Source of the DNA: a virus
Lineage: Duplodnaviria; Caudoviricetes
Strand: one strand, 5' to 3'
Virus record (IMG/VR): IMGVR_UViG_3300028886_001681
Location: 1-64,000 of that record
DNA: 64,000 bases
The stretch's first letter is position 1. The number at the start of each line of letters is the position of its first letter. The notes beneath the pieces are model-generated. The model was not told the origin of the DNA and searched no databases. It worked only from the letters and a program-made list of their open reading frames with translations. Made by a program: the position numbers and the translations under genes. This document shows, one piece after another, positions 3,170-52,669 of this stretch.

Positions 3170-3176
3170 TAACTAT
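3170..3176 (+). promoter_or_regulatory. Putative phage late promoter (YAACTAT)
   Basis: TAACTAT in the intergenic gap before 3214; recurrent motif. Confidence 0.55.
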
Positions 3177-3213
3177 TTTTCAAAACAAAATGAAGGAAAT
3201 ATGGAGGAATGAA

Positions 3214-3765
3214 ATGAACCCTAGAAATGTAGAGTACGCCAATTACGACTCTTACCTAGAAAGCCTAATCAAAAGTCTTTCCAATTTTTGTGACAAATGT
3301 CCATTGAAGCCCAAAATTCATGTGGTGAAGGATTTAGGAAAGATTTACATCCGCTACAATGAAAAAGAGATTGAGATTGTGATTGATGTCACGAAGGACA
3401 AGAAGAAGGTAATCGGCGACTTGAAGAAAGAAATCGAAAAAGATTATCCGATTGTATACGAAAAGACCACGAGGGTGCCTAGCGCGGACGAGGTTCGTGA
3501 GATTTTAGGGAAGGGTAAGACTTTGGAAGAGGCCTTGAACACTACGAAAACCGTCTATAAGAAACTTTACAAAATAGAGCGCGTTCACGACCGATATAAC
3601 GAGTTCGATGTGCTTTCAATCAAGGACGGAGAAATGTATAAATGCAAGTGCAAGATTCCGTTGACCGCTTTGTTGGAGGACTTGAAGCATTTGGGAAAGG
3701 ATTCGGAGGCGGTCGAGCATTTGAGCCTTTTGTATAAGTTGAATTCTGTCGGAGGTTCTAAATGA
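3214..3765 (+). CDS. Hypothetical protein
   Basis: 183-aa ORF with SD GGAGG. Confidence 0.75.
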   Translation: MNPRNVEYANYDSYLESLIKSLSNFCDKCPLKPKIHVVKDLGKIYIRYNEKEIEIVIDVTKDKKKVIGDLKKEIEKDYPIVYEKTTRVPSADEVREILGKGKTLEEALNTTKTVYKKLYKIERVHDRYNEFDVLSIKDGEMYKCKCKIPLTALLEDLKHLGKDSEAVEHLSLLYKLNSVGGSK

Positions 3766-3872
3766 GAGTGGATTGGTGCGAAAGCGAATTTAAGATGAAA
3801 ATTTACCTTTTTTTAATTAAGCGAGAATTCGGACGAAGGTTGCTTCTAGCGTTGAGCGAATAAATTCGAGGG

Positions 3873-3901
3873 TTGACTTCGCCTCGACTTTTGAATAAAA
3901 T
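3873..3901 (+). promoter_or_regulatory. Sigma70-type promoter
   Basis: TTGACT-17-TAAAAT. Confidence 0.75.
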
Positions 3902-3925
3902 GTGTCGAATAAATGGAGGAATCAT

Positions 3926-4888
3926 ATGTATAATGTGTTGATGTTCGATGTATACAATGTGTTTCATCGAGTGTTCTTCGGCAACGAAACTCTCACTAAG
4001 GTGGACAACAAACTCATACCCATAGACGCCATATGCAAATATTTTGAACTTTGCAACAATTACATTGAAAAATACGGAGTCAAGAGGGATTGCAAAATAT
4101 ATTGGTTGATGGACAACGCCAAAAGCAGAATCATCAACAGAAAGTTCATTGACGAAGACTATAAGAAAAATAGAAAGGAGATGCCTGAGCAATTTTACGA
4201 CGCTTTGAATTTCATCGAACTTATCTTGAAATTTTATAGAGATGGAATTCTTTATCGCAAGCAAGGCATAGAGGCGGATGATTATGTAGAGAATATAATC
4301 GACGCTTATGTGGGGGAGCACGACCATGTTTTGCTTTTTTCAAACGATATGGATTGGTCTAGGTCTTTGATGTTGGATGAAGAGCACGACATTAAGGTTG
4401 ACCAATACATCAAAAACAACGAGATATTGACTGTCAAGAGTTTTGAAGAAAAATACGGATTCAAACCAACAGTCAACAACATCACTATGTTCAAAACTAT
4501 GTATGGGGACAACGCGGACAATATTCCCTCGACATTGCCCAATTATCCCAAACAATATTTTTTGGACGCTTTGAGATACAACCACATAGACGCTTTCATT
4601 CGCGACGCTTTGGAGGGAAAGATGGCGTATCTTGATGGAGGGTGGCGAATCAAAATCAAGCAACTCCAAGAACGGATGCGAATGAATTGGAATCTTATTT
4701 CTGCGATAAGTATCAATGTCTCCGACCTTGAGAATTGGAAAGTTGAATGCTCTTTCAAACCCAACAAACTTTTGATAATATATAGCGCTTTGAATGTCAT
4801 GGGTAGATTCGACAAAAGAGTGGGGTATGACAAGAAAGGCTCGAATTTGTTGGACATGTTGGAAGGTGAAACTGTAAACCGAGCGTAA
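3926..4888 (+). CDS. 5'-3' exonuclease / flap endonuclease (T4 RNase H, PolI N-terminal-like)
   Basis: FDVYN, YKKNR, EADD, SNDMD and GDNADNIP motifs. Confidence 0.9.
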   Translation: MYNVLMFDVYNVFHRVFFGNETLTKVDNKLIPIDAICKYFELCNNYIEKYGVKRDCKIYWLMDNAKSRIINRKFIDEDYKKNRKEMPEQFYDALNFIELILKFYRDGILYRKQGIEADDYVENIIDAYVGEHDHVLLFSNDMDWSRSLMLDEEHDIKVDQYIKNNEILTVKSFEEKYGFKPTVNNITMFKTMYGDNADNIPSTLPNYPKQYFLDALRYNHIDAFIRDALEGKMAYLDGGWRIKIKQLQERMRMNWNLISAISINVSDLENWKVECSFKPNKLLIIYSALNVMGRFDKRVGYDKKGSNLLDMLEGETVNRA

Positions 4889-4903
4889 AGGAGGATTTAA
4901 GGA

Positions 4904-5107
4904 ATGAGCAAGAAACCAGACGCGTTTGTGAGAAGGTTCATTGAATGGAGTGCCTTTCATGGTTGCCCGATTTTAGTCGAAGACGACGATGGCACTTGGA
5001 AGGAATACCACGGAAAGAAGTTTGATTGGTTGCACAGAAATTATAAAATCGACAACCGTTCACATGAGGATTATTATAGCAGACTGTATGCTCATGGAGT
5101 GAATTAG
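4904..5107 (+). CDS. Hypothetical protein
   Basis: 67-aa ORF with SD, directly after the exonuclease. Confidence 0.6.
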   Translation: MSKKPDAFVRRFIEWSAFHGCPILVEDDDGTWKEYHGKKFDWLHRNYKIDNRSHEDYYSRLYAHGVN

Positions 5108-5511
5108 ATTGAATTTAGTATGACCGCCTTGGTGTTCACGCCTATAGCCAAGTCCGCATTGTAGGCCACTATTCCTATCTCCCACCTCTCCTTCTCCACA
5201 TTGGCGACCACAGTAACTTCGACAGGTGTCAATGGGGGAGTGAAGTCGTTCTGCAATCCTTGGGTTATGATGCCCTTCATTTCGTCCGCCTTGTCGTCGT
5301 CCATCATTTTTCCTAAATAAGGGTATAATATTCCTCCGCCCAAAGAGCGGACTTTTTCGTTTCTCTTAGAGGCAAGCCACATTTTGACCGCTTGAGCCAA
5401 AGCGTCTGAGTTTTCCATGTCCGCCAAGGAGCCGTCCTTGTTCACCTTCTTGTAGAAAGGGTAGTCGAAGTAGAGAGTGTGGTTGTTTTCGTTGCTTGCA
5501 AATGTTTCCAT
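5104..5511 (-). CDS. Baseplate wedge protein, gp25/GPW-like
   Basis: ALAQAVKMWL..RNEKVR..GG.L..YL and I..GL.NDF.P patterns, 135 aa. Confidence 0.7.
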   Translation of the reverse strand: METFASNENNHTLYFDYPFYKKVNKDGSLADMENSDALAQAVKMWLASKRNEKVRSLGGGILYPYLGKMMDDDKADEMKGIITQGLQNDFTPPLTPVEVTVVANVEKERWEIGIVAYNADLAIGVNTKAVILNSI

Positions 5512-5518
5512 ATGTCAA

Positions 5519-5529
5519 ATAGTTACTAT
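5519..5529. promoter_or_regulatory. Overlapping divergent YAACTAT-type promoters
   Basis: ATAGTTACTAT contains TAACTAT on the minus strand and TTACTAT on the plus strand, each 7 nt from an ATG (5511 and 5537). Confidence 0.6.
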
Positions 5530-5536
5530 TTTGGGT

Positions 5537-6598: not shown

Positions 6599-6856
6599 TT
6601 ATGAACGAGACTGCGATTCTGCCGATTTCTCGTAAAACCATTTCTTCATCTTTTTCTTGTACTCCTTTCTAGTAAGTTTCAGAATGTCTTTCACATACTT
6701 TTTCTCGAAGCAACAGTTGCACAAAGAGTCAACCAACTTGTCGTTCTCGTCAAACACCATCACTGAATAGAGGTTCAGTCCTAGCAATTCCGCCATTATT
6801 ATTCTGCCGTTTTTAAATCTCTTTTCTTTCAGAATTTTTTTAATTCCGTAGTTCAT
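6599..6856 (-). CDS. Hypothetical basic protein
   Basis: 85-aa ORF; ATG 9 nt downstream of CAACTAT. Confidence 0.55.
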   Translation of the reverse strand: MNYGIKKILKEKRFKNGRIIMAELLGLNLYSVMVFDENDKLVDSLCNCCFEKKYVKDILKLTRKEYKKKMKKWFYEKSAESQSRS

Positions 6857-6865
6857 TGGAAAAAG

Positions 6866-6872
6866 ATAGTTG
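6866..6872 (-). promoter_or_regulatory. Putative late promoter (YAACTAT)
   Basis: CAACTAT on the minus strand. Confidence 0.55.
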
Positions 6873-6888: not shown

Positions 6889-6895
6889 TAACTAT
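6889..6895 (+). promoter_or_regulatory. Putative late promoter (YAACTAT) for the portal gene
   Basis: TAACTAT upstream of SD AGGAG and ATG 6928. Confidence 0.6.
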
Positions 6896-6927: not shown

Positions 6928-8883
6928 ATGGGAAACTCTAAAGTTAATTTGGTGAATGTTTCAAAATCGAACAAACTCTATGGAAAAAACACGAGTCGAC
7001 TTCTTAATTTTTTCAACATCGGTGTGACCGACAAGGGAAATATGATTCCAACAGAGCAAGTGTTGGACAAGCGAGGAAATCCCACCCAAAAAGTCAAGCC
7101 GATAGAGATGCCCTCCGCCATGGAGAGTGCCTATCAATACATTGTTTCCAACATGAACACCGCTCCATACATGGACAACGCCTATCGATTCTTGCGCTAC
7201 AAGGACATGAAAGCGGCTTGCGCGACCGAGCCTATTCTCGAAACCGCAGTCAAGGTATATGTGAGCGAAGCCTACACTTCTGAATACGGAAAGCAGTTGG
7301 TTCAAATCAAGGCCAAAGACTCAAAACTTGAGAAGCATTTCTATGAATGGTTTGAGAATGTAGGTTTCACCGAGAATGTAATTCGCGACATCTTCACCAA
7401 CTTGGTCATGTACGGCGACGCGTTTTGGCTTAACGGAATCGACATGGAGGGAAAGGGCGGAATCACGGCAATTACTCCGATAGACCCCTTCTTGGTGTCC
7501 GACAGAATCGAATTCAATGTCGGAATGGTCGAGGAGAAGCGACAGTGGTTCAACATGGCCTTGAACTTGGCCAACACATACCCCTCTCTCCAACAAATTA
7601 TAGATATCGTGACCCAAAAGAATGTCGAGGACATAAGCATGTTCTACAAGTCATATCTTTTCGGATATACTCTAAAATTGTGGGCGGAGGAAGAGAACGG
7701 AAACTCGCAAGATGTGAAGAATGTGAAGGGTGTTCCTCCGTGGTGCATAGCGCATTGCAGGCTCTTCACGACGGACAAAGATTTCTTCCCCTTTGGAAAG
7801 CCGATGATGTTGTCCGCTTTGCCGACATACAAATCTTACAAGACCACTCAACTCTTGGTCGATATGTTGAGAAGCCAATCATTCCCTCGCGAGCATTACT
7901 CAATTAAGTGTGACGAAAACAGCGACCCCTTCACACGTCAGATGCGCATATCGGAAGCCAAGAACTTTCTCGAAGGAATCACTCCGCAGACGCAAAATCA
8001 AGACGGACTTTCAGTGGGAGCCAAAATTTACAGTTGCGAAGGCCTCGTCGACTACGACTTGTTAGACCCCTCAATTGATTTGGACGCTCTAGGCGACCTT
8101 GAGGAAAAGAAATACTCAATGTGCATGTCCACAGGCATTCCGATGACTTATTTGTGTCCTGAAGAAGGAGATGGATTGGGCGGAGACAACGCCGAGAAGT
8201 TGTATTACTTGAACAAGATTTTCCAACGAAGGGTTGACGCATTAAGAAGGGCTTTCCTTGAAACATTGGATGAAACATATCGCATGCACTTGCTCTTGAC
8301 AGAGGAATTTGACGGCGACAAGTCGGAGTTTGAATTGAGCATAGAGAATCCTATAGAGGATATAACCTCGGATAAAATTTCACAAATTAGCGATGTGTTT
8401 GGTTTGGCACAAGAAATTCTTAATGTATTGGCTAGTTCCTTCGGATTAGACCGTGGGGAGTCTTTATCACCAAATATTGTAAAATCGGTACTCGCTCAAT
8501 ATCTTCCTGTAGAAAAAGATATAATTTCTAAATGGGTAGATGAAGTTTATCATTGTGCCGAAGAAGAAAATAAAAATAGCGATAGTGATAACGAAGATGA
8601 AAATGAAAAACCAAAAGATAACATGTTTAGTAAAAAAAATAATTTGTTTGAATCATTACAAGAAAAACAAATTATGGAAAAATGTGGAGAAAAACTTAAC
8701 GAAGGATATTTTAAATATAAAAAAGAGCATGGTGTGATGGAAGGACAAATGGGAAATCGTTATTATTATAATAACACCTATCGATTAAAAGCGCATTACA
8801 AATACACCCCTCTTTATTTCTTGAAGGAAGAAATTCAAACGCAAAAAGCAAAACGAATTCAAGAAGAAATGGAAAAGAAATAA
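6928..8883 (+). CDS. Portal protein, T4 gp20-like
   Basis: RYKDMK..EP.LETAV..YVSEA, NLVMYGDAF, AHCRL...FPFGKPM and GIPMTYL patterns typical of T4-superfamily portals. Confidence 0.8.
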   Translation: MGNSKVNLVNVSKSNKLYGKNTSRLLNFFNIGVTDKGNMIPTEQVLDKRGNPTQKVKPIEMPSAMESAYQYIVSNMNTAPYMDNAYRFLRYKDMKAACATEPILETAVKVYVSEAYTSEYGKQLVQIKAKDSKLEKHFYEWFENVGFTENVIRDIFTNLVMYGDAFWLNGIDMEGKGGITAITPIDPFLVSDRIEFNVGMVEEKRQWFNMALNLANTYPSLQQIIDIVTQKNVEDISMFYKSYLFGYTLKLWAEEENGNSQDVKNVKGVPPWCIAHCRLFTTDKDFFPFGKPMMLSALPTYKSYKTTQLLVDMLRSQSFPREHYSIKCDENSDPFTRQMRISEAKNFLEGITPQTQNQDGLSVGAKIYSCEGLVDYDLLDPSIDLDALGDLEEKKYSMCMSTGIPMTYLCPEEGDGLGGDNAEKLYYLNKIFQRRVDALRRAFLETLDETYRMHLLLTEEFDGDKSEFELSIENPIEDITSDKISQISDVFGLAQEILNVLASSFGLDRGESLSPNIVKSVLAQYLPVEKDIISKWVDEVYHCAEEENKNSDSDNEDENEKPKDNMFSKKNNLFESLQEKQIMEKCGEKLNEGYFKYKKEHGVMEGQMGNRYYYNNTYRLKAHYKYTPLYFLKEEIQTQKAKRIQEEMEKK

Positions 8884-8887
8884 ACAG

Positions 8888-8918
8888 AAAAGGCCTAGAT
8901 TGATTTCTAGACCTTTTT
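8888..8918 (+). terminator. Terminator after the portal gene
   Basis: AAAAGG-CCTAGA-ttgatt-TCTAGA-CCTTTTT. Confidence 0.7.
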
Positions 8919-8929
8919 ATAAAAAACAT

Positions 8930-8936
8930 TAACTAT
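8930..8936 (+). promoter_or_regulatory. Putative late promoter (YAACTAT) for the HNH endonuclease
   Basis: TAACTAT followed 7 nt later by a 5' hairpin. Confidence 0.55.
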
Positions 8937-9013
8937 TTATAACGGAAAAGAGAGACTAAATCTGTTCCCTCTTTTCCTGGCAAATTCACAACATATAATG
9001 GAGGTTGTAAAGT

Positions 9014-10361
9014 ATGCCTAAAGGGAATAGTATTACGAAAATTAAAAATGGTAAAGTGGTCTTTTCAAAAGAAGTTTTGGAATACTTTGAGAATTTAAGA
9101 AATGAAGAAAATTCAGAATGGATTGACAAATATTTTAAAGTTTTATCGAATTCTTCGAATTTTAATGCCGAAAAATACAATATTCATCATATAAGGCCTT
9201 GCTTTACATTTAAAGATAAAGAACATAAAAATAGAAAACAAACTGAAATTTTAGCAGATGAATTTAATGAAAATTTAATTAAATTGTCGATTTATAATCA
9301 TATTAAAGCCCATTATTTTTTATGGAAAATATTCGATGATTGGGATTCAAGACATGCGATTCAACAAATGTGCGGATTAAAGATATATATTAATGATTTG
9401 TCTGAAGATGAATTAAATGAAATTGCGTTGATGAAAGAAGAATGTGCTAAAAAGAACAAAACTAAAGAAGAAAAGTTGGAAGATTCAAGAAATTACAAAA
9501 GAAAGCATAAAGATAGAATAAAAGAAACGAAGAGAAAATATGAAAAAGAAAATAAAGATAAAAAATCAAAATGGGGAGCCACTTATAGAAAAAAGCATGC
9601 TAAAAAAATCACCAAATATAAAAAAGAAAATAAAGAGCGTTTAAGTAAACAAACTAAAGAACATAATGAACAAAAATGCTATGACTCTAAAGAAAACGAT
9701 ATATGTACTTTACGAGCATTGCAAAAAAGAAAACGAAAGAATGTTGAAAAATATAAAGATATAATTCCTAATGATTGTATTTTCAAAACAGAAGAAGAAT
9801 ATTTACAAAAGCAAAAAGAATTAGATGGCAAAGAAAAAGAAAGAATTAAATTTGAAGAAAAATATGGAAAAAATCTATGTTTTGACCCCAAAGAAATAAA
9901 TATTTGTGTTTTACGAACATTACAAGATAGAAAGCGAAAATATCTTGAAAAATATAAAGATACAAACCCCTAGAGATTGCATAATTAAATCTGAAGAAGA
10001 ATATCTACAAAAGAAACTCGAATGCGAAAAACATGAATCTGAAAAGAAGAAGGCACAAAGAGAACATTTATTACAGTATAAGAAAGATTATTATCAGAAA
10101 AATAAAGAACGATGTTCTGAAAATAATAAAAAGAATTACGAACAGAATAAAGAGAAATATCAAGAAAGAAAGAACGAATACGCAAAAACTCACAAAAAAG
10201 AAATTTTGGCATATAAACGACAATTTAATGCTAGAATGTGTTATGACCCAAAAGAAAATGATTATTGCACTTTGAATACATTATATTCTCGAAAATACGC
10301 AAATAAAGAAAAATACAAAGATGTGATTCCTAAAGATTGCATAATCAAAGAGCAAATTTAA
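9014..10361 (+). mobile_element. Free-standing HNH homing endonuclease with repeated C-terminal domains; split by a +1 frameshift at CCC-TAG (9968-9973)
   Basis: HHIRP...NLIKL..NH.KAH HNH motif. Three CxDxKE..ICxL..L..RK...EKYKD..P.DCI repeats continue across the frame change. Strongly AT-rich. Confidence 0.75.
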
Positions 10362-10368
10362 TAATCAG

Positions 10369-10397
10369 AAGGGCGGACTTAAAAATCCGCCCTTTTT
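10369..10397. terminator. Terminator between convergent genes
   Basis: AAGGGCGGA-cttaaaaa-TCCGCCCTTTTT. Confidence 0.8.
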
Positions 10398-10400
10398 AAT

Positions 10401-11063
10401 TCATTCTTCCTCTTGCTTGCTCTTGTCGTTTTCGGACGAGAGGTAGGTGTATGCGTTGTTCAACATTGTGATTTCGGTGAATCGATTTTGAATTGTGTCT
10501 TCCACATCCTTGCCTTCTTTAATCTTGTCCAAAATTCCCAACACATTGCAAAATGCGTTCTTGGGGGTGAAGTTCAATTCTTCCGCCTCTGCGGATTTTT
10601 CTTCCTTGAGTTCTTCCGTGAGCGCGTCGACATTTGTTTGCAATCTTGATGCGCTTTCTAGCACCTCATTCACTTCATCCAATCTTCCCAATTTGTCTTC
10701 GTCGAAACCAATTGTGATATGAATTCCCAAGTTGTCCATTGCCTTCAAATAAGGCTCCAAAAACTCTCGGTCTCCGATTTCGCGAAGGTTTTCCACGATT
10801 TCGGCCAATTTCATGAATGTGGGCGAAATTTTGTCTTTGTCCTTCTTATCCTTGTCCAACTTTAGAGGGTTTCCGTTCTCCCAATTCGCGCCCTTGTAGT
10901 GGCGGTAGTCCTTGGCTTTTTTGATTACTGAAGGCTTCACCCCAATCTTCTTGGCGCAATCCTTCATGATTGAATTCATCGTCTTGCTAAACTTTTTTCT
11001 GTCCGCCAAAGTCTCCAACGAATCGTCCAAAAGTTCCGTGATTTTTTTCGCGTTTTCGTTCAT
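10401..11063 (-). CDS. Probable DNA-binding protein with two T4 DsbA/GapR-like halves
   Basis: Two helical segments, IMKDCAKKIGVKPSVIKK and KSAEAEELNFTPKNAFCNVL; similarity judged by eye. Confidence 0.5.
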   Translation of the reverse strand: MNENAKKITELLDDSLETLADRKKFSKTMNSIMKDCAKKIGVKPSVIKKAKDYRHYKGANWENGNPLKLDKDKKDKDKISPTFMKLAEIVENLREIGDREFLEPYLKAMDNLGIHITIGFDEDKLGRLDEVNEVLESASRLQTNVDALTEELKEEKSAEAEELNFTPKNAFCNVLGILDKIKEGKDVEDTIQNRFTEITMLNNAYTYLSSENDKSKQEEE

Positions 11064-11081
11064 ATATGCTTCTCCTTTTGT

Positions 11082-11261
11082 TTAGCGGTCGAAGTGGCCG
11101 TCTTTGTGGAATTTAATTTGCTTGTCCTTGTTCTTCTTTGACGCGAAGTTTTTGACCTTCTTCGACATCATTCGAGAAACATCTCCGCCGAATTCCTCTT
11201 CGATTTCGTCAATTTCGTAATCGAACTCTTCCGCCAAATCCATTTCGTTGGACTTTTTCAT
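11082..11261 (-). CDS. Hypothetical small protein (59 aa)
   Basis: MKKSNEMDLAEEF...; SD AAGGAG; TTGACA-type promoter upstream. Confidence 0.6.
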   Translation of the reverse strand: MKKSNEMDLAEEFDYEIDEIEEEFGGDVSRMMSKKVKNFASKKNKDKQIKFHKDGHFDR

Positions 11262-11399
11262 TTTCTTTCAATCTCCTTGGTTTTATTTTCAAGGCTCGTC
11301 CTAGCCTTGAATGGACAAATAATACTTCAATTTAAGAAAAATGTCAAGGAATTTTTGCAAATTTTTTGAAAGAAATCCGCTTGATTTTTTCTCGAAATA

Positions 11400-11406
11400 T
11401 AACTAT
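11400..11406 (+). promoter_or_regulatory. Putative late promoter (YAACTAT)
   Basis: TAACTAT upstream of the structural operon starting at 11454. Confidence 0.6.
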
Positions 11407-11453: not shown

Positions 11454-12356
11454 ATGGCAGACAATAATGGCTCTCAGACAATAACATTCAACTACCAACA
11501 AGAAGGAACCTCGTTGGGATTCAACGGACTTTTGAACAATGTAGTGGCGAACGGAGTGATTAGCGGAGGAACTTTGGTGAAATACAGTTCCAATGTCGTC
11601 AAAATTAAGCCTTTGGAGATGATTATTTCGGATTCCGCCAAAAACGCGACAATTCATTTGAAAACTACGGACGACGCTGAAGTTGTCGTGGAGCAAGGAA
11701 AACCTTACATTGTAGCCTCATTCACTTGGATGAATGTCACCCAAAATTATGTGAAATTTGAAGCCAAAGCCTCCTCCGATTTTGGAACTGACGATATTAT
11801 TTTAGGAAAATGCGAATACACAGGCGGAACATTGGAGGACAAACTCGACTATACTTGCCGTATGTGGTCGCCCATTTATAGAAATAACGACTTCACCATG
11901 AACGCTTACAACTCGATGTACTCTAGCCTCACGGTAACTGAACTCCCTAGCACCAACGATTTGGGATTTGTCGTGAACAGAGGAAAAGCGGTGATTAACG
12001 GTCGAGAGGTCGTAGTCAATTCTCCGATTAGCGTGACTTTAGTGAATAGCCCCTCGTCAGACCCATATTACTTCAACGGAGCGGTAACGAACAAGAGAAT
12101 AGACATTATCGTAATGTATGAAAGTGGAACTGTCGGATATATAATGGGAATTGACGAAGCGTCGCCGACAATGCCGCAAGCCCCCTCGAACGCTTTGTTG
12201 TTGGCGAAAGTTACCTTGGAAGATAGAGTAAGCACCTCAAGAATTTACGGGCACGAAATCACAAATTTCAACAACAACAACTTCATGAGTTTTTCTCCGT
12301 CCGTAGGAAAGAAAGTCGGAGCCGACATCGTGAATCCCCACACTTTGTATATTTAG
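11454..12356 (+). CDS. Virion structural protein (baseplate or tail-fibre attachment-like)
   Basis: Beta-rich and N/S/T/V-rich; GVISGG and RIDII...G...P..P..ALLLAKVTL patterns seen in phage baseplate and fibre proteins. Confidence 0.6.
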   Translation: MADNNGSQTITFNYQQEGTSLGFNGLLNNVVANGVISGGTLVKYSSNVVKIKPLEMIISDSAKNATIHLKTTDDAEVVVEQGKPYIVASFTWMNVTQNYVKFEAKASSDFGTDDIILGKCEYTGGTLEDKLDYTCRMWSPIYRNNDFTMNAYNSMYSSLTVTELPSTNDLGFVVNRGKAVINGREVVVNSPISVTLVNSPSSDPYYFNGAVTNKRIDIIVMYESGTVGYIMGIDEASPTMPQAPSNALLLAKVTLEDRVSTSRIYGHEITNFNNNNFMSFSPSVGKKVGADIVNPHTLYI

Positions 12357-12374
12357 CCTAAATGGAGGACATAT

Positions 12375-12536
12375 ATGGAAAACATGAACGAACAGAAGAT
12401 TGAGGAAAAAGTGACCCTCAATGGAAAGGAAATGACGAAGGAAGAATTCGAGAGCGAGAGAAAATCCTTGACCGAAAAGAAGATTCAAATCGTGGAAACA
12501 TCGAAGAACACATTCGTCACTAGAATGTTGGACTAG
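12375..12536 (+). CDS. Hypothetical small protein (53 aa)
   Basis: MENMNEQKIEEK...; SD GGAGG. Confidence 0.65.
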   Translation: MENMNEQKIEEKVTLNGKEMTKEEFESERKSLTEKKIQIVETSKNTFVTRMLD

Positions 12537-12547
12537 AGGGATTTTGT

Positions 12548-13087
12548 ATGGCTAGGACGATACAAGACTGCCTCGCTAGAAGGCTTTGGAAATTCCAAAG
12601 AAAAATGGAGGACAACTTCATAAATGTTAGCGGAACAAGGTGTCGTTGCGCCATAGTCGAGGTGGAGTTCGACAAATACCAAAACACTTATCAAAATGTG
12701 AGTTTGAGCGGATTCGCAAATGTGTTGATGGATTTCCCTGATGACGACATTCCGACATCGACTATGAATTCCAATTCGTCATCATCAACACAAAGCAATG
12801 TCTTGCACATGTACGACATTTTGCCCATTTCCGCTTATTTCAAGAACGAAGATATAATGAAGTACAACATAAGGAAGGATTCTGTAATTCTTCTGAAACT
12901 CCGCAACTTCGACGAATCGTTTCAAATACTCAAACTTCAAGTGACCGATTCTGTGTCCAAAGGCAACGCGTCTAGCGGAGTGTATCACCACAACTTCACG
13001 GTCGCTCCAATCACATCATATCAACTGTTGAACGACGACAACTTCGTGTCGTTGGTAGAACAGTTGAAAAACTCCGACGAATGGTGA
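12548..13087 (+). CDS. Hypothetical virion protein (head or tail completion-like)
   Basis: 179 aa in a structural operon; function inferred from context. Confidence 0.55.
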   Translation: MARTIQDCLARRLWKFQRKMEDNFINVSGTRCRCAIVEVEFDKYQNTYQNVSLSGFANVLMDFPDDDIPTSTMNSNSSSSTQSNVLHMYDILPISAYFKNEDIMKYNIRKDSVILLKLRNFDESFQILKLQVTDSVSKGNASSGVYHHNFTVAPITSYQLLNDDNFVSLVEQLKNSDEW

Positions 13088-13915: not shown

Positions 13916-14671
13916 TCAACGCATAATGCAATAGGTACTGTTATTTTGCATCCATTCCCGAAGGTCGTCGTACTTCTCTTTGTTAGAATCGTAGACCTCC
14001 CCCACGTCAATGCTCAAAGGCAAGTCGCTATTCTGAAGTTTAAGTATCTCTGCGAACCGCATGGCCAAAGCGTATTGACAAAGATTGAGATAACGAACTC
14101 TCAACCTTCTAGGGATAGACTCTTCGGATTCGCCATAGCAACCAGCATCAACAGAAACTGTGCCGACTAAAGTACTCTTGCATACGATGCGGTCATTCAA
14201 TTCGTCGTAATACGCGTAGAAACTTTTGTTTGAGTTCTGCAATGCTTTGTTGAAAAATTGTTGTTGTGAACTTGAAAAATAATACGAATTTATGTCGTAT
14301 GGAAGGCCGTAATTCCTCATCGTGCTAGAGGAAACGCTTGTTATGGTTGATGTGTAGAAGGGGTTTCCGCTCATAAGATTCATATTTCCGCCTCCGCTCT
14401 CAACGAACGCGCTATGAACTATCCCTAGACAGTTTTTAGGAGCGTCTACGGAAATCTCGCTCGTTCCGCTAACAGGAACTCCGACATTGACGACCAAAGG
14501 AAAATAATTGAAGAACACTTCCGCCTCGCGGCCGCAAATGTTTTCTTTAATCCAACTGTCCTCGAACAATTCGCTCAATGTGTCGTTGTCCACCAAAGGA
14601 TAGCCTATGCTTTCCTTAACCTTGTCGAGAAAATTGTTTGATACCTCGAAATTACTCAAATAGGTCGCCAT
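13916..14671 (-). CDS. Neck or head-tail adaptor-like virion protein
   Basis: IGYPLV N-terminus, 251 aa, structural context; tentative. Confidence 0.5.
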   Translation of the reverse strand: MATYLSNFEVSNNFLDKVKESIGYPLVDNDTLSELFEDSWIKENICGREAEVFFNYFPLVVNVGVPVSGTSEISVDAPKNCLGIVHSAFVESGGGNMNLMSGNPFYTSTITSVSSSTMRNYGLPYDINSYYFSSSQQQFFNKALQNSNKSFYAYYDELNDRIVCKSTLVGTVSVDAGCYGESEESIPRRLRVRYLNLCQYALAMRFAEILKLQNSDLPLSIDVGEVYDSNKEKYDDLREWMQNNSTYCIMR

Positions 14672-14690: not shown

Positions 14691-14697
14691 ATAGTTA
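14691..14697 (-). promoter_or_regulatory. Putative late promoter (YAACTAT)
   Basis: TAACTAT overlapping the amidase stop codon, upstream of SD AGGAG. Confidence 0.55.
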
Positions 14698-15354: not shown

Positions 15355-15915
15355 TTACCACAACTTGAGCACGAGTCTTCCGCCGTTCCAAGCGATTTCC
15401 GCGCAGACCAATGTGGCCACTCCGCAACCTATCAACAGCTTGCCTTCGCTCTCCCTTCCGTTGGCGTAAAGGCACACCCCTCCGACTAGGGAAGGAACGC
15501 AAGCGATTGGAATCAACGCGTTCACGAAGATGTTGGCTCTTTTCAAACGGCTTTCCATCCGCGATACATAAGCCTTGTATCTGTCCAATTCCTCTTGCAT
15601 GTCGCCCAACACAGAAATGATTTCATGGGTGTCCTCTTTGTTCGACTCCAACGCCTTCTTGATTGACGCGATGTTCTCTTCCATGGCTTCAATCTTGGCA
15701 TTGCAAGACTCGACCGCCTTCTCCATTTGGGCGGAATACAAGGACAAATTCTTGTTGTCCTCTTGGAGAGATTGAATTGTCAAGCGAATCGACATCATCT
15801 CATCGCCTAAAGCGTCCAACAACTTGTCTTGCTCCTCGACCTTGTTGACTATCGACTCTTGGGCGGACAAAATTGAAACGAAAGTTAGCGCTAACGCGAA
15901 CAAGAATTTTTTCAT
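15355..15915 (-). CDS. Signal-peptide coiled-coil protein with C-terminal hydrophobic helices (lysis accessory?)
   Basis: MKKFLFALAL signal peptide, long heptad region and two hydrophobic segments; adjacent to the endolysin. Confidence 0.65.
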   Translation of the reverse strand: MKKFLFALALTFVSILSAQESIVNKVEEQDKLLDALGDEMMSIRLTIQSLQEDNKNLSLYSAQMEKAVESCNAKIEAMEENIASIKKALESNKEDTHEIISVLGDMQEELDRYKAYVSRMESRLKRANIFVNALIPIACVPSLVGGVCLYANGRESEGKLLIGCGVATLVCAEIAWNGGRLVLKLW

Positions 15916-16337: not shown

Positions 16338-16344
16338 ATAGTTA
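16338..16344 (-). promoter_or_regulatory. Putative late promoter (YAACTAT) for the lysis operon
   Basis: TAACTAT upstream of SD GAGG and ATG 16319. Confidence 0.6.
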
Positions 16345-18801: not shown

Positions 18802-18842
18802 AAAAACCTCGAAAATTATAGTTGAGAAAATTGTAATTTTTC

Positions 18843-18871
18843 TTGACATTTTTTCTAATTTAAGATACAAT
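18843..18871 (+). promoter_or_regulatory. Sigma70-type promoter
   Basis: TTGACA-17-TACAAT. Confidence 0.8.
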
Positions 18872-19087: not shown

Positions 19088-19121
19088 TTCCAACTATATA
19101 AGAACTTTTGGTTGAATTGAA

Positions 19122-22082: not shown

Positions 22083-22110
22083 CAACTATTTATGATTTGA
22101 GAGGTTGAAG

Positions 22111-27854: not shown

Positions 27855-27918
27855 GAAAATCCCAAGACAGAATAACTATTAAAGAAAGAAGAGAAAGTTT
27901 TCTAGGAGAAAAAAGGCG

Positions 27919-30015: not shown

Positions 30016-30098
30016 TTGAAAAAGCGAACTAATTTGGAGCGCCAAAGTCCGAATTTAACTATTATACCCATGATATTTTTGCTTGCGAGGTAATTCCA

Positions 30099-31351: not shown

Positions 31352-31396
31352 AATGAAAGATAGTTAATGATTGGGAATTTCGTCCAACTTTTTCCT

Positions 31397-33325: not shown

Positions 33326-33401
33326 TTCACAATCCTTTCTAGTGTAAATCCAAAGAAATATCCAAATATGAATATTGCGCCCATAGTTAATATTGTTTCA
33401 T

Positions 33402-41490: not shown

Positions 41491-43191
41491 TTAATAATCC
41501 ATGAAATGTTCCTTGAAATAATCCTCCCTTTCATAAGCCTTGGTCTTAAAGTATTTGTAGGCAAGTTTTATTTTCGGCAACATATCAAGATATTTTTCCC
41601 TTTCTCGTCTGTCATTCAAATAATACCTCAAGTCTTTTTCCGTGGTCTGACTGATGTTGAAGAATTCCGTTTTGTCCAACCAAATCGCGGTTCTTTTCCT
41701 CTTGGTGTCGTCATGCCATCTTTCCTCAAAATAAAGGATTTTATATCCCCAATCTTCGTCATAATCCTTTATTTCGTAAACTTTGCTTCTATTCGGAATT
41801 CCCACCCATCTTCTTCTCCAATCCATATGATGCTCATAGATGAAATCCGAATCGTCGGTCGCTCTGCCGTAATAATTTTTAGAACCCCACAAGTCGGTGA
41901 CGATGATTCTGTCGCCTATTTTGCTTCTGTCTCTGTTTTCTTGAAGATAACTTCTCCAACTAGGCATCGTGTTGTCGCCAATCAAATCTTTTCTTTCCTT
42001 ATCGCGAACCAACACGATTTTTTCCTTGTCAAAAAGTCCGCATATGAGATTCGTCTTGAATTGGCAGTCCGTTCCGAGAATGTCGGTTCTGTCAAGAATG
42101 CCTTGAATCGCTATGAGAATGTATTTCCAAGGGAGAATGTTTTCCATGAAAGTTTCTTGGTCGAATTCTTCATCGCCGTTCCATTTCTTTCCCGCTTGAA
42201 TGCTTTGTTCTTCTGTGGGAAACATCGTGTCGTCTCTTGACTCGACATCGGAGAAAATTCTATAGAGCCTTTCTCCGTTTCTTATGAGAAAATAACAGTT
42301 GGCGTTATATCCGTTGCACACCATGTTTTCCCATCTGTCGCCGTAGTCTTTTCCCCGCCTTTTGATTCGCCACATCACAATTCCGCGCTCCGACGGAATG
42401 AACATCTTGTAATTCTTGACAATCCATTCGTCAAAAAGATTGATGTTCTTGTAATCAAAGTCGTCCGTTTCCACATAAGTGGTTTCCGTAATTTGCTCAA
42501 GATTCACGATTCCATATTCTTCGTCCATGAATCTAACGGCTTGGTACAAATGAATGGGTTCGTCGCTCGTCTTTCCTTCGCCGATAAGTTCGACGACCTC
42601 TTCTTTCGCCCCAAGATATGTTTCGTACGCGCAAATCACGCGATATTTTCCTTTAAGCCATTTTTCCATTTCGGCAACTTGCAACTTCAATTCTTGCCTC
42701 TGTTTTTCAAGTTCAAGCATTTTCCTTTCGATTTCATTTCTGCAATCATTGAAATCTTTCACCGTTTTGATTTTGCCTTCCTTGAATTCTTGCGGTAGGT
42801 TTTCGGAATAGGCTTTGACCGCGTCGTCTTTCAACAACGCTATTTCTTGGGAATCCGCTTTCTGCCCTTTGGACGACAGTTTCTTTTCCACATCGTCAAA
42901 ATTAAAGTTTTCAAATTCCGACACTTTGATTGTTTTCACGAGTTTATAATCTTCTTCCGTTTCAACATAGATGTTGATTTCGGCTTTATCATAACATCCG
43001 TCTTTAATGGCATATTTATTTGAATCATGATTGTATTCAGAAAGGCTATAGTCCGAGAGATATTTATAGATGTCGTCTTCCGTGTAAACAAATTTATATA
43101 CGGCGAATTCAAAGGAGTCCGCTTCAATCCAAACGCCCTCAAGTCTCGGATATCCGTTCGTTTCTTCTTTTCTGCCGAAAAAATATTTCAT
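41491..43191 (-). CDS. Large hypothetical protein with a central coiled coil
   Basis: 566-aa ORF, SD GGGAG. Confidence 0.85.
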   Translation of the reverse strand: MKYFFGRKEETNGYPRLEGVWIEADSFEFAVYKFVYTEDDIYKYLSDYSLSEYNHDSNKYAIKDGCYDKAEINIYVETEEDYKLVKTIKVSEFENFNFDDVEKKLSSKGQKADSQEIALLKDDAVKAYSENLPQEFKEGKIKTVKDFNDCRNEIERKMLELEKQRQELKLQVAEMEKWLKGKYRVICAYETYLGAKEEVVELIGEGKTSDEPIHLYQAVRFMDEEYGIVNLEQITETTYVETDDFDYKNINLFDEWIVKNYKMFIPSERGIVMWRIKRRGKDYGDRWENMVCNGYNANCYFLIRNGERLYRIFSDVESRDDTMFPTEEQSIQAGKKWNGDEEFDQETFMENILPWKYILIAIQGILDRTDILGTDCQFKTNLICGLFDKEKIVLVRDKERKDLIGDNTMPSWRSYLQENRDRSKIGDRIIVTDLWGSKNYYGRATDDSDFIYEHHMDWRRRWVGIPNRSKVYEIKDYDEDWGYKILYFEERWHDDTKRKRTAIWLDKTEFFNISQTTEKDLRYYLNDRREREKYLDMLPKIKLAYKYFKTKAYEREDYFKEHFMDY

Positions 43192-43830: not shown

Positions 43831-44256
43831 TTATTCGTCGTCTTCGTCAGATTCAAAATATCCTTGGCCTACACACCAATTATAAAATGATTCTTCCCCA
43901 TCATCGAGATATTCTACTTTATCTTTAATAAAATCATTTTTGTTATGCTCAGACAAAGAATAAAAATTGCCGTAACCGTTCACTACATAATATTCTTCAT
44001 TTGGGTCAAAAGTATCTTTTGTATGAAAATCACCATTATAATATTGACCGCCAAAATATATTCGATTTAACAACCAATTCAAATCTTCTTTCTCTAAATA
44101 ATATTCAAGGTCATCCATATCATGAATGTAATCTTCCCAATCACGACCAACATCGTTGAGATATTCTTCTCCATATTCTTCCGCCATTTCATCAAAATCC
44201 CAACCTTTCGGGGCGTCGAATTTTTCAGTCATTCTTTTATCGTTCATAGTTTTCAC
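43831..44256 (-). CDS. Acidic hypothetical protein (late gene)
   Basis: 141 aa, D/E/Y-rich; TAACTAT at 44290-44296. Confidence 0.7.
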   Translation of the reverse strand: MKTMNDKRMTEKFDAPKGWDFDEMAEEYGEEYLNDVGRDWEDYIHDMDDLEYYLEKEDLNWLLNRIYFGGQYYNGDFHTKDTFDPNEEYYVVNGYGNFYSLSEHNKNDFIKDKVEYLDDGEESFYNWCVGQGYFESDEDDE

Positions 44257-44348
44257 TCTCCTTTTTCATTGTGAACTGAATATGATAATATAGTTATTTT
44301 TCCGCGTAAAAACGCCTAAGATTGGAAGGAAATCCAACTATCTTTCCC

Positions 44349-44528
44349 ATGAGCGTAAGCGAAATTTGCGCCTTGGTCGGAACGGTTCTGTCCTTGGCGG
44401 TTATTCTGTACAAACTAGGCCGTCTCTCTTCAAAGGTGGACTCCAACACACATAGGTTGGACAGACACGAATCCGACTTGCGTGGCCTCAACGACAAGGT
44501 TTTCTCCTTGAAGTCAGAGCGGAAGTAG
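44349..44528 (+). CDS. Small TM plus coiled-coil protein (XhlA or holin-like), apparently leaderless
   Basis: ATG 7 nt after CAACTAT (44335-44341); TM helix followed by RLDRHE. Confidence 0.55.
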   Translation: MSVSEICALVGTVLSLAVILYKLGRLSSKVDSNTHRLDRHESDLRGLNDKVFSLKSERK

Positions 44529-47884: not shown

Positions 47885-48002
47885 AAGAAATTCCTCCTTT
47901 CCCATCGGATTTCTACCGCATATTACCATATAATGGGGATTTTGTCAAGCGTTTTTGCCAAAATTCGCAACTATTTTAATCATTCCAAAAACGGAGGAAT
48001 CT

Positions 48003-48818
48003 ATGAAAACAGGAAAATTGGTCGAAAATTTCAAGAACAGAAAAATTTTCGAATGGAACGGAAAGGAATACTCCTACGACGAAATCTACAACTTGATAAA
48101 GGACTTGGATTATGTGAAGAGCGGAGAGGACTGCGATTGGCGGATTATAAGGGTGCGCGACATAAAGGACGGACGAGACTGCTACTGCTTGGCCTTCCAA
48201 GACTCGCGCTCGACGACGGATTGGATACACAACTTCATGTTCTTGCCTCGCTCCACCAAGGCCTACAAAGGATGGAGGAACAGGTTGAAGTTCGTGAAAG
48301 GCTTCTTCAAGGAATACCAATCGGCTAGGGACGAGATACACTCGAACCTTTCGCTCCTTTTGCAAGACATGGCGATTGAGCAAGATTGCGCGATTTCCGC
48401 CTTGAAGGTGTATGTGATAGGCTTCTCCTTGGGAGCGTCCATAGCCCCAATCGCTTGCGAGGACTTGAACTTCACTTACGGAGTGAACCCTGTCCTAATA
48501 GGATACGAGGGGGCGGAGTGTTGCTCGAACAACCACACTAGGAATGTGGTGGCCGACTCTTTGAACCAAGACGAGTCAATCTCTTTCGTGTTCGCCCAAG
48601 ACATAGTGCCTAGATGCCCCTTCTGCTTCGGAAGGAAACTGAAAGACTTCATCTACTTCTTGGACGACGGAACGGTGAAATTCCCCTTTAAATTCATAAA
48701 GTGGCTAGTTTCCACCATAACGAAGACCCCTTGGTATCACGCCAATGTCGACGAGGGAATATTGAGATACATGCCTTGGGACGAAAGCGAGTTGGCCAAG
48801 GCGGACAGAGGGGAGTAG
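48003..48818 (+). CDS. Lipase, class 3 (alpha/beta hydrolase)
   Basis: LAFQDSRS..DW..N, KGF..EY, GFSLG nucleophile elbow, QDIVPRCP and a C-terminal His; CAACTAT at 47968-47974. Confidence 0.85.
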   Translation: MKTGKLVENFKNRKIFEWNGKEYSYDEIYNLIKDLDYVKSGEDCDWRIIRVRDIKDGRDCYCLAFQDSRSTTDWIHNFMFLPRSTKAYKGWRNRLKFVKGFFKEYQSARDEIHSNLSLLLQDMAIEQDCAISALKVYVIGFSLGASIAPIACEDLNFTYGVNPVLIGYEGAECCSNNHTRNVVADSLNQDESISFVFAQDIVPRCPFCFGRKLKDFIYFLDDGTVKFPFKFIKWLVSTITKTPWYHANVDEGILRYMPWDESELAKADRGE

Positions 48819-49543: not shown

Positions 49544-49575
49544 AAAGCCCCGCAAGTGATTTGCGAGGCTTTTTT
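49544..49575. terminator. Bidirectional terminator
   Basis: AAAGCCCCGCAAG-tga-TTTGCGAGGCTTTTTT. Confidence 0.8.
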
Positions 49576-50422: not shown

Positions 50423-50771
50423 TTTCTATTATCTCCCATCTAATGTTAAAATAACATCCGCTACCTTATGTATAAACTGTTGAAAATCCATAAGTTAATC
50501 CTCTGCCTAATTCAAATTACGCAATGAAAATTCCGAACCACATTTTAAAATAGGGTCTTTGCATTTATAATATCGAATAAAGCAAGAGTTTCTAATTTTG
50601 AAGCGCACATAAATTTTTGTCTTGTGTTAGATGCCTTCACTTCAATCATATTCAATCTCCTTACAGATATAAATATATCATAAAAGAGATTGAATGTCAA
50701 GGAAAATTATTAAAAATGTTAAATAAAAAATCCGCCCAAAAAATGAGCGGATTTCATAATATGATGCTAAT

Positions 50772-51368
50772 TTATCGTTTATTTATTTGATACAAAATTT
50801 TATTACAAAGGTCTTCGACTTCTTCAATCTTTCTTTTTAATTCTTTCAAACTTTTATCACTATAATTACTCTGATAATCGTCCATAGCATAAATTAATTG
50901 TTTAGTTGAACCTTTACACATCGCAAGCAAATCATCGTTTATCAAATCGTAATTAGATTCTTTCAGACTTCTCTTTGTTGTTCCTTTTATAGATTCTTCA
51001 AACTTGAAGAAATAATCTTCAATGTTAGAACTGATTACTTTATATGAATAATCAACATCATATTTTGCAAAATGCCAACTTCCAAGGTGGTCGTCTGTAT
51101 ATGATGCGCCGTCAGTATAATGTCTTATGATGTCTGCCCATCCACCCTCATCAAATGTAAAGAACAACCTTACAGGGAAATTATGATTCTCTGCTACAAT
51201 ATAACAGTTATCTTGACCATAATCAGCCTTAAACCACCAATCTTTCTTGAACTCTTTTGTAAGATATTCAACCATTCTCTTGAGATTAATATGAATCAAG
51301 AAATAAGCATATGTATCATCAGACCAATCGTCATCTCTCGGTTCAACTTTCCAATCGTATCTTGCCAT
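50772..51368 (-). CDS. Hypothetical protein (late gene)
   Basis: 198 aa; TAACTAT at 51410-51416; terminator at about 50727-50755. Confidence 0.75.
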   Translation of the reverse strand: MARYDWKVEPRDDDWSDDTYAYFLIHINLKRMVEYLTKEFKKDWWFKADYGQDNCYIVAENHNFPVRLFFTFDEGGWADIIRHYTDGASYTDDHLGSWHFAKYDVDYSYKVISSNIEDYFFKFEESIKGTTKRSLKESNYDLINDDLLAMCKGSTKQLIYAMDDYQSNYSDKSLKELKRKIEEVEDLCNKILYQINKR

Positions 51369-51435
51369 AAATTTATCTCCTAAATTAATTTTCAGTTTTT
51401 ATATGTTAAATAGTTAATTTTCAAAATACATATTT

Positions 51436-51518
51436 AAAAAAAATTAAAGAGGTGTGGTCGAACGAGATTAGCGATTCAACCAATGTTTAGGGTAACGACC
51501 TAAACTTCACCTCTTGTA
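51436..51518 (-). ncRNA. Putative three-way-junction small RNA of about 80 nt
   Basis: AAGAGGTG/CACCTCTT closing stem plus GTTTAGG/CCTAAAC and TGGTTGAA/TTCGACCA arms; TAACTAT at 51526-51532 upstream and a U-tract downstream. Confidence 0.55.
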
Positions 51519-51529
51519 ATTTTCAATAG

Positions 51530-52669
51530 TTAGTTTTCCGTGTCTTGTGAAACCGCGTCGTTGTCGTTCGCGGTGACCTTCAAATCCGCCAACTCCGCTT
51601 TCTTCGCCTCAAGTTCGTCGGTTTTGTCGTCGTCTTGCATTACAGTCTTTTCGTCCGCGTTCTTGTAGGCGCTCAATGTTTCCTCATACAACTTGTCCTT
51701 GAATTCCTCATGCTCCTTCAAGTAGTTGCAGAAGGCCTCCTCTCCTTGCCATCTATGGTCGTCGGAACAAGACTCCTTGTTGGGGTAGTAGAACCAAGCC
51801 CCTCCTTTATTAACCGTCCCTAGTTGAACCGACGCTCTAGCCAAGTCGGTTATTTTGTCAATTCCTTGCCCATAACGACAAACGAGAGTGCACTTGCGGT
51901 AAGGAACTCCGACTTTGTTCTTGGTGACCTTGAATGTGATTTCGTTGCTCACCGCCAATCCGTCCTCTTCCGTAACTTTGGTTTGACGGCGCATTGTCAC
52001 TTGTTGGGAGAATGTAAACTCCCCTGCTCGTCCGACGGATTTCACTTCGGACGGGCCCATTCCCATCGTGTTGATTGAGGCTCTGACTTGTTCGATTACA
52101 ATCAAGGAACAATTGTTGTCCGCGCACACACCAGCCAACTGTTTGTATGCGTTTCCCAAAATGCGAGCCACCAAAGCCATGCTCACGCTAGTGATTTCCT
52201 CGTCGTTCGCCTTTGACGGAGAAAGGGCGGATGTTGAATCCAAAACCGCGATTCCATAGATTCCGCTAGCGATAGAGTCGCGCAATTTGGTCAATCCTTC
52301 CTCCGCGCTCTTCGTTTGGTCGATTACCGTTCTGTCCAAGTCCACACCTAGAGCCTTCAAATAGGACACATCTGTGCTCTGCTCAGCGTCGTATATGTAT
52401 GCGTAGAAGGACTCGTCCTTTCTCTGTTGCTCCGCAATCGTCATGTAGGCGAGAGAGGATTTTGCTGACGAATACGTTCCGTTGATTGCTGCCACACGTC
52501 CAACTGCTATACCTCCGTTTAGCGCTAGGTCGATGCCCATGATTCCTGTGCTATAGAATTTCACTTTCTCAAGGTTGTTGGCGGTTTTCACCGTTCCTTC
52601 CTCGCCGTACTGCTTGGCGAATTTTTTATTCAACTCCGCCAACTTCTTCTTTTTTTCAGACAAATCCAT
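51530..52669 (-). CDS. recA: RecA/UvsX-family recombinase
   Basis: STG..GIDLAL.GGI..GR, DAEQ, LGVD, VLDS and KVTKNKV..PYR motifs. Confidence 0.95.
   Translation of the reverse strand: MDLSEKKKKLAELNKKFAKQYGEEGTVKTANNLEKVKFYSTGIMGIDLALNGGIAVGRVAAINGTYSSAKSSLAYMTIAEQQRKDESFYAYIYDAEQSTDVSYLKALGVDLDRTVIDQTKSAEEGLTKLRDSIASGIYGIAVLDSTSALSPSKANDEEITSVSMALVARILGNAYKQLAGVCADNNCSLIVIEQVRASINTMGMGPSEVKSVGRAGEFTFSQQVTMRRQTKVTEEDGLAVSNEITFKVTKNKVGVPYRKCTLVCRYGQGIDKITDLARASVQLGTVNKGGAWFYYPNKESCSDDHRWQGEEAFCNYLKEHEEFKDKLYEETLSAYKNADEKTVMQDDDKTDELEAKKAELADLKVTANDNDAVSQDTEN

Follow-up and report, generated by a model that had tools for sequence, protein, structure and literature searches.

TAACTAT, a putative single-element promoter of the T4-late kind in a clade of uncultured cattle-gut phages

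The DNA considered here is a window of 64,000 nucleotides (nt), the first 64 kb of the IMG/VR record IMGVR_UViG_3300028886_001681 (G000 below), a linear phage contig of 160,258 bp with a GC content of 38.5% and a completeness of 77% (CheckV); the element under study is a seven-base word, TAACTAT (YAACTAT when the variant CAACTAT is included), which recurs in front of its open reading frames (ORFs). Bovine gut DNA runs contain the G000 sequence. Family matches were obtained in G000 for a GroEL-like chaperonin, an ATP-dependent ligase, a UvsX-like recombinase, a split NrdD, an SbcC/SbcD-like nuclease, RtcB, a Dda-like helicase, topoisomerase IB and many HNH homing nucleases, and a protein of 517 amino acids (aa) encoded at 122839-124392 on the minus strand has a distant homologue, P0101, that carries the Pfam domain Gp23 (PF07068), the major capsid family of T4. 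A syntenic relative, IMGVR_UViG_3300021387_000796 (G001; 218 kb, 92% complete, GC 29%), with a median protein identity to G000 of 66%, adds a gp6-like baseplate wedge (phrog_219, E = 9e-41), a clamp loader (phrog_5846, E = 7e-40), a DnaB-like helicase and a DNA polymerase; its 176-212 kb region (about 36 kb) extends past the left end of G000, in which the counterpart has no coverage. Judged by these capsid, baseplate, and replication and recombination genes, the phage is a distant member of the T4 superfamily. A collection of phages gave no DNA or protein match to G000, and no relatives of the capsid protein were found in a genome-contig collection; the relatives used below were fetched from IMG/VR by capsid protein.

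The initial annotation had listed 19 YAACTAT sites as a phage-specific promoter of late-type genes, and all 19 proved correct in coordinate and strand; each is intergenic and directed towards the gene that follows. The enrichment over background on which it had staked this proposal is also present: the window holds 26 copies of YAACTAT, compared with 9.3 +/- 2.5 in dinucleotide shuffles (maximum 17), and with gene boundaries taken from our own gene calls throughout G000, 60 of the 65 copies of TAACTAT in the whole contig are intergenic and 59 are both intergenic and in the sense orientation of the downstream gene. As this class makes up 6.6% of the G000 positions (binomial P = 9e-63), chance occurrence is excluded. 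TAACTAT is the commonest 7-mer in the upstream regions of G000, above the Shine-Dalgarno words, and of the words that differ from it by a single base, CAACTAT alone shows enrichment (10 of 29 copies intergenic and sense). Position matrices built from 59 sites in G000 and 74 in G001 give the consensus wTAACTAT-T-T-w-a with a purine peak 8 nt past the final T, and their information is confined to motif positions -1 to +10; the C is invariant, and a -35 element is absent, as had been claimed, so that the word has the form of the T4 late promoters, a single element in the -10 region without a -35 box. The hexamer TAACTA in G000 is followed by T in 65 copies, by A in 5, by C in 2 and by G in 3. The order of a terminator followed by the promoter word was seen at only 3 of 59 sites and is therefore not a general feature. 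A literature search for TAACTAT returned only irrelevant matches.

Counter-selection against the word was followed by shuffling synonymous codons within genes and counting on both strands. The genes of G000 contain TAACTAT twice in sense and three times in antisense, where 13.7 and 6.6 copies are expected, and those of G001 contain 16 and 5, where 24 and 16 are expected, a depletion of 2- to 4-fold; CAACTAT and the control words showed no depletion in the same shuffles. The distribution is repeated in G001, in which 71 of 95 TAACTAT copies are intergenic and sense and the logo is the same despite a very different base composition. Among 119 one-to-one pairs of G000 and G001 orthologues, the word lies upstream of both members in 23, of one member in 10 and of neither in 86 (odds ratio 79, P = 3e-15), and in several pairs it is the sole conserved upstream stretch, an island in diverged DNA. 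It also heads a non-coding RNA gene of about 290 nt (66.9-67.2 kb of G000), whose homology with G001 begins exactly at the word. The C form occupies a position in between: at 6 of 11 intergenic CAACTAT sites G001 likewise has CAACTAT or TAACTAT, in some cases with the leaderless spacing described below, which justifies the Y at those sites, and its lack of avoidance inside genes suggests that it is probably weak on its own. The degenerate first base of the annotated motif therefore stands firmly for T and for about half of the intergenic copies with C; TAACTAT is the true core and CAACTAT a weaker variant.

The distance from the word to the start codon ranges from 7 to more than 100 nt. Eleven G000 ORFs (59-444 aa) that have no Shine-Dalgarno site carry their ATG 7 (the mode), 8 or 9 nt after the word, the same peak of ATG spacing is found in G001, and the leaderless arrangement is kept in orthologues. 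Because these ATGs fall at 7-9 nt, the first base of the RNA would likely be around the eighth past the last T of the word, in agreement with the +1 that had been predicted 7-9 nt after that T; and because such a fixed spacing is hard to explain otherwise, the word is likely to be a promoter. Counter-selection, conservation, spacing and the non-coding unit are four independent lines that agree in pointing to a functional word.

The genes that follow the word were compared with those that do not. It lies directly upstream of the capsid gene in G000 and G001 and of the baseplate-wedge gene in G001; the RNA gene, a transposase gene and 5 of the 9 genes for HNH-type nucleases are also directly preceded by it. 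No copy stands before the genes for polymerase, ligase, UvsX, SbcC/SbcD, Dda, helicase, clamp loader, GroEL or topoisomerase, and TTGACA-type promoters serve several of these. T4, too, places late promoters before homing-nuclease genes. The pattern fits a "late" class, with the timing read from the contrast of capsid and baseplate with replication genes; the annotated late class would rest on that contrast and is qualified by the homing-nuclease, transposase and RNA genes and the nrdD gene of G001, which also carry the word. The names that had been attached to individual genes (portal, neck, holin, lipase, SprT) found no confirmation in Pfam or PHROGs: ten word-driven proteins of the window gave only hints at noise level (baseplate, E = 0.003; spanin, E = 0.003), and four large ones had no match by phmmer against PDB. 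The second class of promoters that had been described, TTGACA-17-TAnnnT, is real: about 25-30 strong CTTGACAA-17-TATAAT-like sites were counted in G000, where they precede small minus-strand genes, the tRNA array and several replication genes.

Among the relatives, TAACTAT is the top upstream word in every locus with a capsid identity of 38-91%. In loci with 27-35% capsid identity (L035-L037, L040, L042, L046-L049 and L051) the top word is TACTAATA(t/a)aat, again a single element, 17-70 nt before starts, capsid genes included; the two words have the core ACTA in common. The sites within the window are collected in Table 1.

Table 1. YAACTAT sites in the 64-kb window, with the downstream ORF and the state of the site in the relative G001
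Word	Position	Strand	Downstream ORF and context
TAACTAT	3170..3176	+	37 nt before ORF 3214-3765; also at the G001 orthologue despite diverged flanks
TAACTAT-N7-ATG	5519..5525	-	Leaderless ORF 5104-5511 (135 aa); G001 orthologue has TAACTAT with ATG 8 nt after
CAACTAT-N9-ATG	6866..6872	-	ORF 6599-6856 (85 aa); CAACTAT kept at the G001 orthologue
TAACTAT	6889..6895	+	32 nt before 651-aa ORF 6928-8883; divergent from the 6866 site
TAACTAT	8930..8936	+	77 nt before homing-endonuclease-like ORF 9014-9973; directly after a terminator-like hairpin
TAACTAT	11400..11406	+	47 nt before ORF 11454-12356; motif kept in G001, flanks unalignable
TAACTAT	14691..14697	-	19 nt before ORF 13916-14671
TAACTAT	16338..16344	-	18 nt before the ATG at 16319, ORF 15912-16319
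CAACTAT	18818..18824	-	16 nt before ORF 18394-18801; TAACTAT at the G001 orthologue; a promoter on the other strand has its -35 box 17 nt away
CAACTAT	19091..19097	+	24 nt before 501-aa ORF 19122-20627
CAACTAT	22083..22089	+	After the T-run ending the tRNA array; 21 nt before ORF 22111-22272; CAACTAT in G001
TAACTAT	27873..27879	+	39 nt before 340-aa ORF 27919-28941
TAACTAT	30056..30062	+	36 nt before ORF 30099-30776
TAACTAT-N8-ATG	31360..31366	-	Leaderless ORF 31040-31351 (103 aa); TAACTAT-N7-ATG at the G001 orthologue
TAACTAT	33383..33389	-	57 nt before ORF 33011-33325; absent from the initial list
TAACTAT	44290..44296	-	42 nt before ORF 43831-44247
CAACTAT-N7-ATG	44335..44341	+	59-aa ORF 44349-44528; CTACTAT-N7-ATG at the G001 orthologue
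CAACTAT	47968..47974	+	28 nt before ORF 48003-48818, which is without a G001 homologue; 18 nt from an opposite-strand CTTGACAA box
TAACTAT	51410..51416	-	41 nt before ORF 50772-51368
TAACTAT	51526..51532	-	Second copy, 157 nt before ORF 50772-51368; overlaps the stop codon of the UvsX-like gene
CAACTAT	23562, 25094, 33069, 40083, 40761, 56361		Six copies inside genes, absent from the initial list

Several further features of the contig were noted. Several YAACTAT sites stand back to back with an early-type promoter of the opposite strand (window 18818-18871 and 47920-47974; G000 81294-81348 and 142784-142850), 17-23 nt from the reverse complement of the -35 box (TTGTCAAG), and the same geometry is seen in G001; so constant a distance may reflect a divergent cassette shared by both promoters, or a competition between the promoter classes. 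Metatranscriptome contigs that are 100% identical to the phage include window 10983-11298 and 12100-12941, and two of them stop at 11293-11298, some 15 nt short of where a TTGACA-17-TATTAT promoter at 11319 is predicted to start transcription. The window stretch 8876-10401, which comprises ORF 9014-9973 and its flanks, is replaced by 1144 unrelated bases in a relative's contig from another cattle-gut DNA run and is skipped in a second run, which makes it a cassette that moves between strains. The 566-aa ORF at window 41491-43191 (minus strand), without a Pfam or PHROG match, is reduced in G001 to a remnant of 42 aa and is therefore a variable or recently acquired gene. Conversely, a 952-aa ORF of G001 without a PHROG match (76512-79370, minus strand, equal to L021:2512-5370), which adjoins nrdD, is missing from the same site in G000.

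It is from the enrichment, orientation, counter-selection, conservation and spacing of the word that we infer its promoter function, its start site, its timing and the nature of the protein that reads it. TAACTAT, or more fully wTAACTAT-T-T-w, would be a single -10-like promoter located at roughly -14 to -6 and belonging to a clade of cattle-gut phages that are uncultured and distantly related to T4 within its superfamily. A purine 7-8 nt past the last T of the word would be the first transcribed base, and a subset of the genes, about 11 in G000, would therefore be made as leaderless or near-leaderless mRNAs, with most of the other genes receiving a leader of 20-90 nt with a Shine-Dalgarno site. 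The word would not serve as an ordinary host promoter, the host-type CTTGACAA-17-TATAAT sites forming a separate class; rather, a phage specificity subunit in the role of gp55 would redirect the host core RNA polymerase to it. That the word is read by host core polymerase together with a phage-encoded, sigma-like subunit is the explanation we consider probable, if with some reserve.

The only candidate for such a subunit is a conserved 275-aa protein, encoded beside the clamp-loader genes of the relatives, within the stretch of about 36 kb that is absent from G000. It was chosen by reading the sequences of unassigned proteins; its gene, at G001 206259-207086 (minus strand), adjoins the clamp-loader module and has a TTGAAA-17-TAGAAT promoter of its own. 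Members of the family occur in G001 and G006, and G002 and G003, genomes of the TACTAATA type, also encode it (E about 1e-16); none of its 68 homologues has a Pfam domain. In an AlphaFold model (predicted local distance difference test score, pLDDT, 71), residues 1-37 form a zinc ribbon, and a disordered linker separates two helical domains, at 40-142 and 183-271. The top Foldseek matches are weak (E 0.7-3) and are mostly sigma region-2 structures, namely SigC (2o7g, probability 0.96), ShbA and sigmaE region 2 on -10 DNA. In VIA-align, Z reached 7.3-7.6 with ShbA (9isn/9m84), 6.7 with SigC 2o7g (87/88 residues, root-mean-square deviation (rmsd) 3.2) and 6.1 with T4 gp55 (7d7c_F, 87 residues, rmsd 3.4), the program itself warning that, among helical proteins, Z values under 8 do not discriminate. 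A profile of the family alignment (A2) matched PDB sequences, those of MCM, with its zinc ribbon only. An aromatic-rich segment, YYxxKxDFK(I/V)xxSFxxY...LYNK, is invariant in the TAACTAT and the TACTAATA sub-clades, with residues that differ just after it; by eye it recalls sigma region 2.2-2.3 and may serve as a lead. We propose the 275-aa protein tentatively, as a possible rather than a probable reader of TAACTAT.

A number of results weigh against the explanation given above or against this candidate. The initial annotation had expected a gp55-like sigma in the rest of the genome, and although the likeness to a T4 late promoter holds in kind, in a distant T4 relative, neither such a sigma nor an RNA polymerase was detected by sequence, and of the two genomes only G001 supplied a structural candidate, a weak one. 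Six-frame family searches of G000 and G001 did not find Sigma70_r2, a T7-type RNA polymerase (PF00940), beta-prime domain 2 (PF00623) or AsiA, and PF04542 was likewise not found in a six-frame search of G001. For gp55 (phrog_234) there was no match at E <= 10 in G000 and G001 and none at E <= 1 in G002-G006, and its profile was negative by phmmer and hhalign; the gp45 clamp (phrog_223) had no match in G000-G004, where it may simply have diverged. When the candidate family and all 313 small proteins were compared, profile against profile, with gp55 and phage sigmas, every probability stayed below 20%; hhalign of the candidate with a phage-sigma profile gave a probability of 2.6%, and a Pfam scan of the candidate at E <= 0.5 returned no sigma family. 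Hemerythrin, ion-channel helices and other unrelated bundles score like the sigma matches of its model, and the protein was not found anywhere in the 160-kb contig G000, from which the syntenic region is missing. The exception of the nrdD gene in G001 has been mentioned, and since most genes after the word have no assignable function, the term "late" rests on three virion-gene instances, the capsid gene in G000 and G001 and the baseplate wedge in G001. The pieces 100% identical to the phage that were found in two bovine gut metatranscriptome runs were available as contigs only, at a depth of 2-7, and may be DNA carry-over.

Other proteins were considered as the reader and set aside. A match to phrog_12791 at 34204-34431 (minus strand) is weak and was judged spurious, the ORF being a coiled-coil protein. 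Matches to Sigma70_r4 and r4_2 fall in an 86-aa protein of generic HTH_23/28 type rather than a sigma, composed of two helix-turn-helix (HTH) units, which is conserved and encoded upstream of the SbcD-like gene (G000 100663-100923, minus strand, equal to L054:1486-1746). For the protein of 191 aa at 95224-95799, neither Pfam nor the ESM Atlas yielded a match. Distant relatives do encode small proteins of the sigma-70 family (G003 L052:1114-1761, minus strand, 215 aa; G002 L055:1423-2010, minus strand, 195 aa), with region 2 at E = 1.5e-5 and a weak region 4, but family hidden Markov model, phmmer and hhalign searches found no homologue among the G000 and G001 proteins, and the synteny around these genes is too eroded for use in locating a counterpart.

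The word could also be read by the holoenzyme of the host primary sigma, as a promoter with a -10 element only, once a small phage protein had disabled the recognition of the -35 box or remodelled sigma, as is done by gp39 and gp76 of Thermus phage P23-45 and by AsiA of T4; a new sigma would then be unnecessary. This would agree with searches that detect neither a sigma nor gp55, and with a phage that clearly uses host sigma for its CTTGACAA class; a start 7 nt after the motif would, moreover, put an A at -11 and a T at -7, the bases flipped by primary sigma. The word itself, however, is a poor match to what that enzyme reads, as it differs from TATAAT at 3 of 6 positions, has no TG extension and contains an invariant C, a base absent from host-type -10 boxes, and its strong counter-selection in genes is not required of TATAAT-like words. 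With no AsiA homologue found in the G000 and G001 searches, and with a different fixed word, TACTAATA, in the related phages, for which a co-evolving phage factor is an easier explanation than host sigma, we regard reading by host sigma as unlikely. Still more so is a phage-encoded RNA polymerase of an unrecognised type, as in phiKZ/AR9- or crAss-type phages. Room for one exists in the many large G000 and G001 proteins without a family assignment (410-1122 aa; the longest ORFs have 746 aa in G000 and 1122 aa in G001) and in the part missing from a contig that is 77% complete, but these unassigned proteins would be about as many as the T4-type virion proteins yet to be found, neither PF00940 nor PF00623 gave a signal in the two genomes, pattern scans of proteins of at least 250 aa for DxDGD or T7 motif B/C yielded nothing convincing, and the motif is -10-like, with sigma-type geometry.

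That the word acts other than as a promoter, as an RNA-level signal for processing or translation or as an operator, for example for the 86-aa double-HTH protein, seems scarcely credible. It does lie in the sense strand before starts, and hence would be present in read-through mRNA, and a conserved small HTH protein does exist; a signal in RNA is nevertheless difficult to reconcile with a distance to the start codon of 7 to more than 100 nt, with the copy that heads a non-coding RNA gene and with a depletion that extends to the antisense strand of genes. Where an ATG lacks a Shine-Dalgarno site and follows at a fixed 7-9 nt, transcription has to begin at that point, and most sites have no other promoter-like element nearby.

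The promoter proposed here, read by host core polymerase with a phage subunit, may be set beside known systems. In T4, late promoters (TATAAATA) are recognised by gp55 together with gp33 and the clamp protein gp45 (PMC3184105, PMC3606486). Like them, the TAACTAT element is a single -10 element of about 8 bp without a -35 box that precedes virion and homing-nuclease genes, in a phage that shares with T4 the capsid, baseplate, clamp-loader, UvsX and gp46/47-like genes and the use of host-type promoters for early genes. Unlike them, it has the word TAACTAT(T)T, which does not conform to the TATAAATA consensus, gp55 and gp45 homologues are undetectable by sequence, some of the transcripts are predicted to be leaderless, and the candidate reader, at 275 aa, is longer than T4 gp55 (185 aa) and differs from it by the zinc ribbon at its N-terminus and by its second helical domain. 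Variant late words are documented, of the NATAAATA type in cyanophages and TggTAaAAtA in rV5, the latter a phage with a T4-late-like motif yet no recognisable gp55, gp33 or gp45 (PMC3184105, PMC3606486). The drift of the promoter word between lineages is similar here, as is the lack, shared with rV5, of a recognisable gp55 or gp45; those words, however, stay near TATAAATA, whereas TAACTAT has an invariant C and another register, and the distant relatives use TACTAATA. With the extracytoplasmic function (ECF) sigma factors, such as E. coli sigmaE and M. tuberculosis SigC, the candidate has in common that its residues 38-140 are best matched by sigma region-2 structures, including sigmaE on non-template -10 DNA, and that its order of helical domain, linker and helical domain is that of sigma2-linker-sigma4; it differs from them in having no Pfam sigma domain, no profile-profile signal and no -35 element to go with it, and its Z scores of 6-7.6 are within the noise of helical bundles. 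The middle and late promoters of Thermus phage phiYS40 consist of a -10-type element right before start codons and give leaderless mRNAs. The same arrangement, a -10-type element directly before some start codons, is seen here and predicts leaderless mRNAs, but phiYS40 has a host-like element and a host with a leaderless habit, while in the present phage most genes keep their Shine-Dalgarno leaders and the word is unlike a host -10.

The TAACTAT class is thus well supported in kind as a new sequence version of the T4 late-promoter strategy. A more far-reaching account, which we find possible but doubtful, is that a large gut clade of the T4 superfamily has swapped gp55 for a new family of late sigma-like factors, composed of a zinc ribbon, a sigma2-like domain and a second helical domain, with which the word has co-evolved as TAACTAT and TACTAATA, and that these phages routinely make leaderless mRNAs, although their hosts otherwise depend on Shine-Dalgarno sites. 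For the clade itself, uncultured and largely unannotatable, the word offers a ready transcription map, which marks transcription units, corrects leaderless start codons missed by gene callers and tells two expression classes apart. The work also yields a single, concrete candidate for the reader, and a short, orthogonal pair of promoter and factor would be useful as a genetic part. For the T4 superfamily, the finding would mean that the late-promoter strategy can outlast the drift of both the promoter word and its reader protein beyond sequence recognition.

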